A stretch of 64,000 nucleotides of DNA, from the NCBI RefSeq assembly GCF_003334385.1, contig NZ_QOWN01000012.1; one strand, 5' to 3'. Positions within the stretch are counted from its first letter, which is position 1. Every line of letters starts with the position of its first letter. Positions 44,885-45,205 of this stretch are shown here, piece by piece. This DNA comes from Escherichia coli. GTDB lineage: Bacteria; Pseudomonadota; Gammaproteobacteria; Enterobacterales; Enterobacteriaceae. Made by a program: the position numbers and the translations under genes. The notes beneath the pieces are model-generated. The model saw only the letters and a list, made by a program, of their open reading frames with translations, searched no databases and had not been told where the DNA came from.

Positions 44885-44957
44885 AACCCTCTCCTTAGCT
44901 TATACAGATATCATTGAGTGACCGGTGTTGAGAAATCCGGTGGTTTAGGGGGATAGA

Positions 44958-44972
44958 GCAACAATCGCACCA
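44958..44972 (-). promoter_or_regulatory. Candidate sigma-54 (-24/-12) promoter for ygfK-ssnA-ygfM-xdhD
   Basis: Minus strand reads TGGTGCGATTGTTGC (GG and GC correctly spaced; consensus TGGCACG-N4-TTGC), ~75 bp upstream of the ygfK ATG. Confidence 0.35.
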
Positions 44973-45205
44973 CTCTTGCCAGGTTTGGCGGGAAATATAA
45001 AAAAATGTGAGGCGGCTCGAAACTTAAGGGCTTTTTGTGAATGAACTCACAGGTGCTAAATGAGAATTAAAATCACTCCTGAAAATTATTATTGCCAGCC
45101 CATTTATCAATTTTTCTCTTTTCTCAAAATCAGTGATTCCTTATCATTATGATAATGAGTGCCGGAAGGATTAAATATTTGAACGCAATCGTTTAACTAC
45201 GTTTT

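Follow-up and report, generated by a model that had tools for sequence, protein, structure and literature searches.

We conclude with high confidence, at a probability of roughly 0.85, that the -24/-12 element GTGGTGCGATTGTTGCT (a 17-mer on the minus strand at 44957-44973) is a functional sigma-54 promoter of the ygfK-ssnA-ygfM-xdhD operon of Escherichia coli. This reading is built on published ChIP occupancy, on conservation of the element in 73 of 79 orthologous loci, on its place among the three best sigma-54 matches of the window, and on the lack of a competing predicted sigma-70 promoter or terminator. By the window we mean the whole stretch of DNA that was analysed, 64,000 nucleotides (64 kb) in length. 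The ygfK promoter as such is already known from ChIP-seq, ChIP-exo, an EcoCyc prediction, and the YgeV iModulon. The parts that go beyond the published tables are a candidate operator for the enhancer-binding protein YgeV, a CRP-like architecture, and the conservation across species, of which the first two are modest new leads.

The window is a K-12-like E. coli segment, reverse-complemented with respect to the MG1655 reference. The spacer between yqeB and yqeA/arcC (48331-48370) is 40 bp long here and 220 bp long in the MG1655 record, so that some 180 bp (perhaps a repetitive extragenic element) are absent and the window strain is not MG1655 itself. The ygfK gene, taken from the open reading frame and the annotation (41786-44884, minus strand, 1032 amino acids), is the first gene of ygfK-ssnA-ygfM-xdhD, in which successive genes are separated by 2, 50, and -4 bp down to about position 36758; this close packing makes an operon plausible. 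Upstream lies the annotated and co-oriented mocA (ygfJ; 45206-45784, minus strand), and the spacer between the two genes occupies exactly 44885-45205, or 321 bp. The element was located within this spacer by sequence, a leave-out position weight matrix (PWM), ChIP, and alignment. Its 15-mer core TGGTGCGATTGTTGC is present as a single copy in the 64-kb window, on the minus strand at 44958-44972, with a 3' end 74 bp from the ygfK ATG (44884). The GG (44971/44970) and GC (44959/44958) have the spacing of the canonical TGGCAC-N5-TTGC, and the element can be read as TGGTGC-GATTG-TTGC. The -24 box, TGGTGC, thus departs from TGGCAC twice, with T for C and G for A. The first-pass annotation had described a minus-strand motif about 75 bp upstream of ygfK with correctly spaced GG and GC and two mismatches in the -24 box, and our measurements bear out each of these points.

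We derived a sigma-54 PWM from the 135 motif-containing ChIP-seq sites of Bonocora et al. (2015), training on 130 of them after all 5 sites within the window had been excluded. The ygfK element scored 14.22 bits, close to the median of the bound training sites (14.44 bits; 10th percentile, 11.8 bits). The three best matches among the 128,000 window positions were those of xdhA (15.49 bits), ygfK (14.22 bits), and ygeW (13.82 bits), all on the coding strand, just 5' of the first gene of an operon and near ygeV. The PWM scan proposed in the first-pass annotation was therefore positive, with ygfK ranking second after xdhA and before ygeW. Both departures of the -24 box fall at tolerant positions: T5 and G6 are each seen in 25 of the 130 bound sites, and TGGTG is read in 8 of them. 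The near-invariant G3, G4, G15, and C16 are all matched. The earlier description of the site as weaker than that of xdhA holds for the sequence score (14.2 versus 15.5 bits; 10.06 versus 10.93 in the scoring of Bonocora et al.) but not for in vivo occupancy, which is higher at ygfK (FAT 26 versus 11 by ChIP-seq; SNR 15.6 versus 10.4 by ChIP-exo).

The score of the ygfK element by itself is no better than chance in 64 kb. With up to two mismatches, the strict consensus TGGCACG-N4-TTGCW matched 15 times in the 64-kb window against an expectation of 14.3, and a score of 14.22 bits is expected by chance between 0.9 (iid) and 2.0 (Markov-1) times per window over both strands. The fourth-best PWM match, CTGTCGCGATTTTTGCA (10077-10093, plus strand), reached 13.8 bits without the GG and is absent from the published ChIP list, illustrating that non-functional sequences can also score close to 14 bits. 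It is the combination of position, orientation, cross-species conservation, and published ChIP that lifts the ygfK element far beyond chance.

The 17-mer GTGGTGCGATTGTTGCT is identical to site OS31 in the ChIP-seq study of Bonocora et al. (2015), an intergenic sense site assigned to ygfK with a FAT of 26. OS31 was given a predicted start 62 nt from ygfK and flagged as an EcoCyc predicted promoter, and ygfK was one of only 5 microarray-predicted sigma-54 genes that were confirmed by ChIP in that study. An RpoN ChIP-exo study (2022) placed an intergenic peak, B82 (SNR 15.6), over the same element, noted its overlap with OS31 and with a previously reported ChIP-chip peak, and listed ygfK and ssnA among the putative RpoN targets. 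As a minor negative, genomic SELEX with RpoN in vitro lists the ygeV/ygeW spacer and lacks ygfK. Under the conditions of the ChIP experiments the ygfK promoter was probably silent, so these data report binding rather than firing. Our search of the literature found no mapped 5' end for the ygfK promoter and no measurement of ygfK expression in rpoN or ygeV mutants.

We collected 80 ygfK loci by scanning representative bacterial genomes, 79 of them usable, from Enterobacterales, Aeromonas, Vibrionaceae, Shewanella, Morganella, and others, and took in each the best PWM match within 400 bp 5' of ygfK, counting it if it reached 12 bits. A sense-strand -24/-12 element was found in 73 of the 79 orthologs, with a median of 15.0 bits and ending 57-130 nt from the ATG, versus 4/79 for antisense and 0/79 for coding controls. 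An alignment of 18 species shows unchanged TGG and TTGC within a spacer that has diverged around them (mean column identity 44%). The -24 box varies by clade, reading TGGTGYG in Escherichia, Citrobacter, and Klebsiella and TGGCGYG or TGGCCTG in other clades. Within the species, 5169 of 5426 E. coli genomes contain a 66-bp core promoter, which is at least 99% identical in 4483, and a 901-bp probe across the element, which matches MG1655 and numerous further strains at 100% identity, was found in 5172 of the 5426 complete genomes. Co-oriented mocA lies upstream of ygfK in 50 loci with a spacer of 300-500 bp, and the retention of several hundred base pairs between the two genes argues for an internal promoter.

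Two further features emerged from the comparison. Across Enterobacterales and Aeromonas, the G-ATTG inside the element (positions 8-12) is conserved far beyond the sigma-54 norm, which hints at an additional constraint such as an overlapping binding site. In Cedecea sulfonylureivorans, Buttiauxella sp. A111, Lonsdalea, and Symbiopectobacterium, a second, antisense sigma-54-like site of 15-17.5 bits lies within 400 bp upstream of ygfK, which suggests a divergent sigma-54 pair with a common control region where the upstream gene differs.

Following the rule of Bonocora et al. (motif centre 44965 minus 19), transcription is predicted to start at 44946, giving a leader of 62 nt, the same distance as in their Table 1. 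The 5' leader (44885-44945, minus strand) contains a Shine-Dalgarno sequence, AAGGAGA at 44890-44896, that is invariant in the alignment. A short CCGG...CCGG stem at 44910-44940 (minus strand, about +6 to +26) was predicted in 6/6 species with some compensatory-looking changes. The leader folded no better than shuffled sequences (z from -0.7 to +1.5), RNAalifold gave no consensus pairs, and a search of 44600-45500 against Rfam at E-value thresholds up to 1 returned no family.

Upstream of the element, conserved blocks were found in the alignment and then placed in all loci, relative to the start at 44946, by a separate search for each motif, because ungapped positional conservation over the 73 loci was blurred by indels. 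The most prominent block is a palindromic dyad, TATCA-N3-TGATA, at 45142-45154 with its centre at -202, which we consider a candidate YgeV operator. The dyad was found in 70 of the 73 orthologous loci versus 2 of 216 coding controls. It takes positions of -182, -202, or -214, in steps of roughly one to two helical turns, and precedes 68 of 70 ygfK sigma-54 sites by 90-260 bp. We trained a dyad PWM solely on non-Escherichia orthologs and ran it over the window. The top match was that of ygfK itself (22.9 bits), followed by the ygeV/ygeW spacer (54805-54827; 19.3 bits), the uacT/ygfT spacer (29767-29789; 19.1 bits), a site inside ygeX (dpaL; 52961-52983; 15.6 bits), the region upstream of xdhA (60644-60666; 15.1 bits), and a site inside yqeC (46527-46549; 12.8 bits), and the next match in the window reached 9.1 bits. 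Five matches of at least 15.1 bits were thus observed against 0.09 expected, and four of the five lie in the four sigma-54 promoter regions of the cluster, at -199 (ygfT), -202 (ygfK), -234 (ygeW), and -152 (xdhA) from the respective sigma-54 starts. The strong matches inside coding regions, at 52961-52983 and 46527-46549, count against reading the dyad as an operator. The copy in ygeX is a perfect TATCA-N3-TGATA some 280 bp inside the gene, away from any sigma-54 site; it could reflect chance, serve an activator from a distal or downstream position, or have another role. Next to other sigma-54-like matches in the ygfK loci, the dyad occurred in 6 of 49 cases, mostly through re-use of the ygfK dyad, and this count is not informative.

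Judged from sequence, we regard it as an even bet that the dyad is the YgeV operator. Our literature search found neither a definition of a YgeV operator nor a report of YgeV binding or dependence at ygfK. Two other factors were rejected by eye as dyad-binding proteins: for Fur, the central bases needed by a Fur box vary between species, and for FNR, the order of the half-sites is reversed. Closer to the promoter, the block TTTGAGAA / TTTGATAA at 45121-45128 (minus strand, about -178) was identified in the alignment and contains a TGAKA half-site; the motif TTGAKAA occurs in 47 of 73 loci versus 9 of 216 controls and clusters at -158 and -178. The block TGAttttaATTCTCA at 45061-45075 (minus strand, about -120), found by the alignment alone, contains a TCTCA half-site, and its invariant columns among the 18 species are T166, G167, A168, T175, T176, C177, C179, and A180.

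The segment between these blocks and the -24/-12 element resembles a CRP-controlled region. A pattern scan revealed a perfect CRP consensus core, TGTGAGTTCATTCACA, at 45036-45051 (minus strand) centred at -97.5, the sole TGTGA-N6-TCACA without a mismatch in the 64-kb window. In 39 orthologous loci, a CRP-like site with at most two mismatches is centred between -97.5 and -99.5. A half CRP-like site, TTCGA-N6-TCACA, was identified by alignment and motif search at 45006-45021 (minus strand) with its centre at -67.5, exactly 30 bp from the -97.5 site, and its columns are invariant in the alignment. The pattern T.GA-N6-TCAC occurs in 61 of 73 loci, in 52 of them at -67.5/-68.5, versus 3 of 216 coding controls, and 35-52 loci have a CRP-like match at this position. 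Elsewhere in the cluster, CRP-like sites lie at -77.5 upstream of ygeW (54652-54667) and, as a half site, at -67.5 upstream of xdhA (60563-60578). The IHF consensus WATCAANNNNTTR had no match in the ygfK spacer even when one mismatch was allowed. A role of CRP at ygfK appears somewhat favoured by these sequence patterns, and the sites at -97.5 and -67.5 would fit the reported glucose repression of urate degradation.

A PurR-box-like sequence, ACGCAATCGTTTAACT (block A; 45183-45198, plus strand), was also recognised in the alignment for a subset of species. Sequences resembling ANGCAANCGNTTNCNT with 0-1 mismatch occur in three sigma-54 promoter regions of the cluster (29609-29624, 45183-45198, and 54700-54715), and the ygfK copy, AACGATTGCGTTC, is conserved in Citrobacter, Edwardsiella, Hafnia, Buttiauxella, and Serratia. 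The reading of block A as a PurR box gained no support: the pattern is not enriched, with 6 occurrences versus 2.3 expected, a number that 7 of 100 shuffles also reach. The cluster genes are absent from the published PurR ChIP-chip paper.

YgeV is the sole enhancer-binding protein encoded in the cluster, by a gene about 10 kb from ygfK (54978-56756, plus strand). The domain search assigned to it a GAF-like/PAS N-terminus, an AAA+ sigma-54 interaction domain, and a Fis-type HTH_8 domain, with no receiver domain, a set that points to an activator of the ligand type, which could recognise a dyad of this kind. In the PRECISE-1K compendium, the YgeV iModulon groups ygfK, ssnA, ygfM, and xdhD with xdhABC, ygeWXY, hyuA, ygfT, and uacT, and ygfT expression is reduced in a ygeV mutant according to the work that PRECISE-1K cites. 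Three other sigma-54 promoters of the cluster, known from the ChIP list, resemble that of ygfK in carrying the dyad: ygeW (OS30; 54593-54609, minus strand), xdhA (OS29; 60514-60530, minus strand), and ygfT (OS32; 29950-29966, plus strand), the first two recovered also by the sigma-54 PWM. The first-pass annotation had suggested that both arms of the cluster might be controlled by the same enhancer-binding protein. The iModulon and the dyad common to ygeW, xdhA, and ygfT lend this idea indirect support, short of proof. We consider YgeV the probable activator of the ygfK promoter. The location of ygeV next to ygfK in 1 of 80 loci (4-kb flanks), and not in E. coli, is uninformative on synteny.

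One additional site was noticed in the neighbourhood. The sequence TGAGCACGAACCTTGCA at 46288-46304 (plus strand), inside yqeC and directed toward yqeB, is the published intragenic sigma-54 site IS34 (FAT 7), and its ChIP-exo peak B81 (SNR 35) exceeds that of ygfK. The 12.8-bit dyad copy lies about 230 bp downstream of it, and yqeB may thus also have an internal promoter linked to YgeV.

Could the element be something other than a functional sigma-54 promoter? A mere chance resemblance to the -24/-12 consensus would agree with the chance rate of two-mismatch matches and with one to two 14.2-bit matches being expected per window. It is nonetheless a very improbable explanation of an element with independent in vivo occupancy datasets, deep conservation of both sequence and position, and a top-three rank, and ChIP and conservation together effectively refute it. 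Also improbable is a second reading, in which sigma-54 binds in a poised, non-productive manner and the ygfK transcripts come from mocA read-through or from a sigma-70 promoter within the spacer that CRP activates. In its favour, Bonocora et al. caution that productive transcription is not known for many of the sigma-54 ChIP sites. No intrinsic terminator was predicted between mocA and ygfK, so read-through may add to ygfK expression, yet it leaves the conserved -24/-12 element unexplained. A sigma-70 promoter could draw on the perfect CRP site and on a TATATT hexamer at 44994-44999. No sigma-70-type promoter passed our consensus scan of the spacer on the ygfK strand, however, and the hexamer is kept in close relatives alone, whereas the -24/-12 element is invariant. 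By our own arithmetic, a start set by TATATT would be about 56.5 bp away from the centre of the CRP site, outside the usual class I spacing of CRP. A poised site also sits poorly with the position and orientation retained in 73 of 79 loci and with the co-variation of ygfK with other sigma-54/YgeV-controlled genes.

A different question is whether a genuine sigma-54 promoter might respond to another enhancer-binding protein, for example NtrC under nitrogen limitation, with the dyad belonging to an unrelated regulator. Membership in an iModulon is correlative, and ygfK has no ygeV beside it in E. coli and in 79 of the 80 loci, both of which would leave room for such an activator. This explanation is hard to reconcile with a dyad that is specific to the four sigma-54 promoter regions of the cluster and found essentially nowhere else in 64 kb, or with YgeV as the only enhancer-binding protein of the cluster and the lowered ygfT expression reported, in the work cited by PRECISE-1K, for the ygeV mutant. 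We give it a small probability. To our knowledge, the other enhancer-binding proteins of E. coli all have assigned targets, which also counts against it. We thus retain the reading of the element as a functional sigma-54 promoter, probably under the control of YgeV.

On the basis of these observations, we propose the following mechanism for the ygfK promoter. RNA polymerase with sigma-54 occupies GTGGTGCGATTGTTGCT as a closed complex, as the published ChIP data show, and transcription would start about 62 nt upstream of the ygfK ATG, at the predicted start, only after an AAA+ enhancer-binding protein has remodelled this complex. The most likely activator is YgeV, presumably activated by urate or a derivative, as suggested by the common dyad, its helical phasing, and the iModulon. 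YgeV might bind to the dyad near -200, probably aided by the half-sites at about -178 and about -120, reach the promoter by DNA looping, hydrolyse ATP, and thereby open the complex. CRP-cAMP would probably bind at -97.5, and perhaps at the half site at -67.5, rendering expression glucose-repressible. It might also supply the DNA bend that is given by IHF at other sigma-54 promoters. Three observations suggest this role of CRP: a perfect core that is conserved, a spacer in which no IHF-like site was found, and the glucose repression seen at the level of the pathway. The outcome would be urate-induced and catabolite-repressed expression coordinated with that of xdhABC, ygeWXY-hyuA-yqeA, and ygfT. 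The joint reading is tentative and, in our judgment, falls somewhat short of even odds: the dyad would be the YgeV operator from Escherichia to Vibrio and Shewanella, common to the four sigma-54 promoters of the urate cluster, with phased CRP as the architectural partner instead of IHF.

The operon acts in the opening steps of the reductive uric-acid pathway, in which XdhD-YgfM reduces urate to 2,8-dioxopurine and YgfK and SsnA dearomatise the product and open the ring. Published work shows strong induction of ygfK and ygfT by uric acid in MG1655 and repression of urate degradation by glucose in wild-type E. coli. To circumvent this repression, a Crp site described in the ygeV-ygeW spacer was taken out on purpose. 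This recently solved pathway of gut bacteria is being engineered for lowering host urate, and its regulation was called poorly understood by the authors. Recognising that the ygfK operon has its own conserved sigma-54 promoter could be useful for engineering or modelling the pathway: replacing the ygeV-ygeW spacer alone leaves the ygfK promoter under native control. If the dyad were the YgeV operator and CRP its partner, a single module would make the pathway both urate-inducible and glucose-repressible. The promoter itself is not new, and only the candidate YgeV operator and the CRP architecture would add knowledge.

How does the ygfK promoter compare with known systems? It is the same object as OS31 and the EcoCyc predicted promoter, with an identical 17-mer, gene, and 62-nt distance. 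The core element is no different; the upstream dyad, the CRP-like sites, and the cross-species conservation are not part of the published tables. The closest parallels are the promoters of xdhA (OS29) and ygeW (OS30), which have similar PWM scores (15.5 and 13.8 versus 14.2 bits), leaders of 80-84 nt versus 62 nt, a dyad of the TATCA-N3-TGATA type, a CRP-like site (-67.5 or -77.5), and the same iModulon. They differ from ygfK in the position of the dyad (-152 at xdhA and -234 at ygeW versus -202), and in their -24 boxes (TGGCGT or TGGCAC versus TGGTGC). The perfect CRP core is found only at ygfK, and ChIP occupancy is highest there (FAT 26 versus 11 at xdhA and 3 at ygeW).

A more distant likeness is offered by prpBCDE of E. 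coli and Salmonella, which is transcribed with sigma-54, PrpR, IHF, and CRP. Its activator is dedicated, lacks a receiver domain, and senses a metabolite of the pathway, and CRP-dependent catabolite repression is overlaid on this control. Both systems would thus combine a sigma-54 catabolic operon with a non-receiver enhancer-binding protein and a CRP layer. In contrast to prp, where IHF is used and the activator gene is divergent and adjacent, ygfK has no IHF-like site, and ygeV lies 10 kb away and would serve several promoters. In Clostridiales, Nie et al. (2019) predicted a DioR sigma-54 regulon comprising orthologs of ygeW-ygfK-ssnA-ygeY, dpaL, yqeB/yqeC/ygfJ, and pbuX. The predicted control by a sigma-54 enhancer-binding protein is of the kind proposed here, in another phylum and with a different operon structure, and the DioR prediction suggests that sigma-54 control of the urate pathway recurs across phyla.
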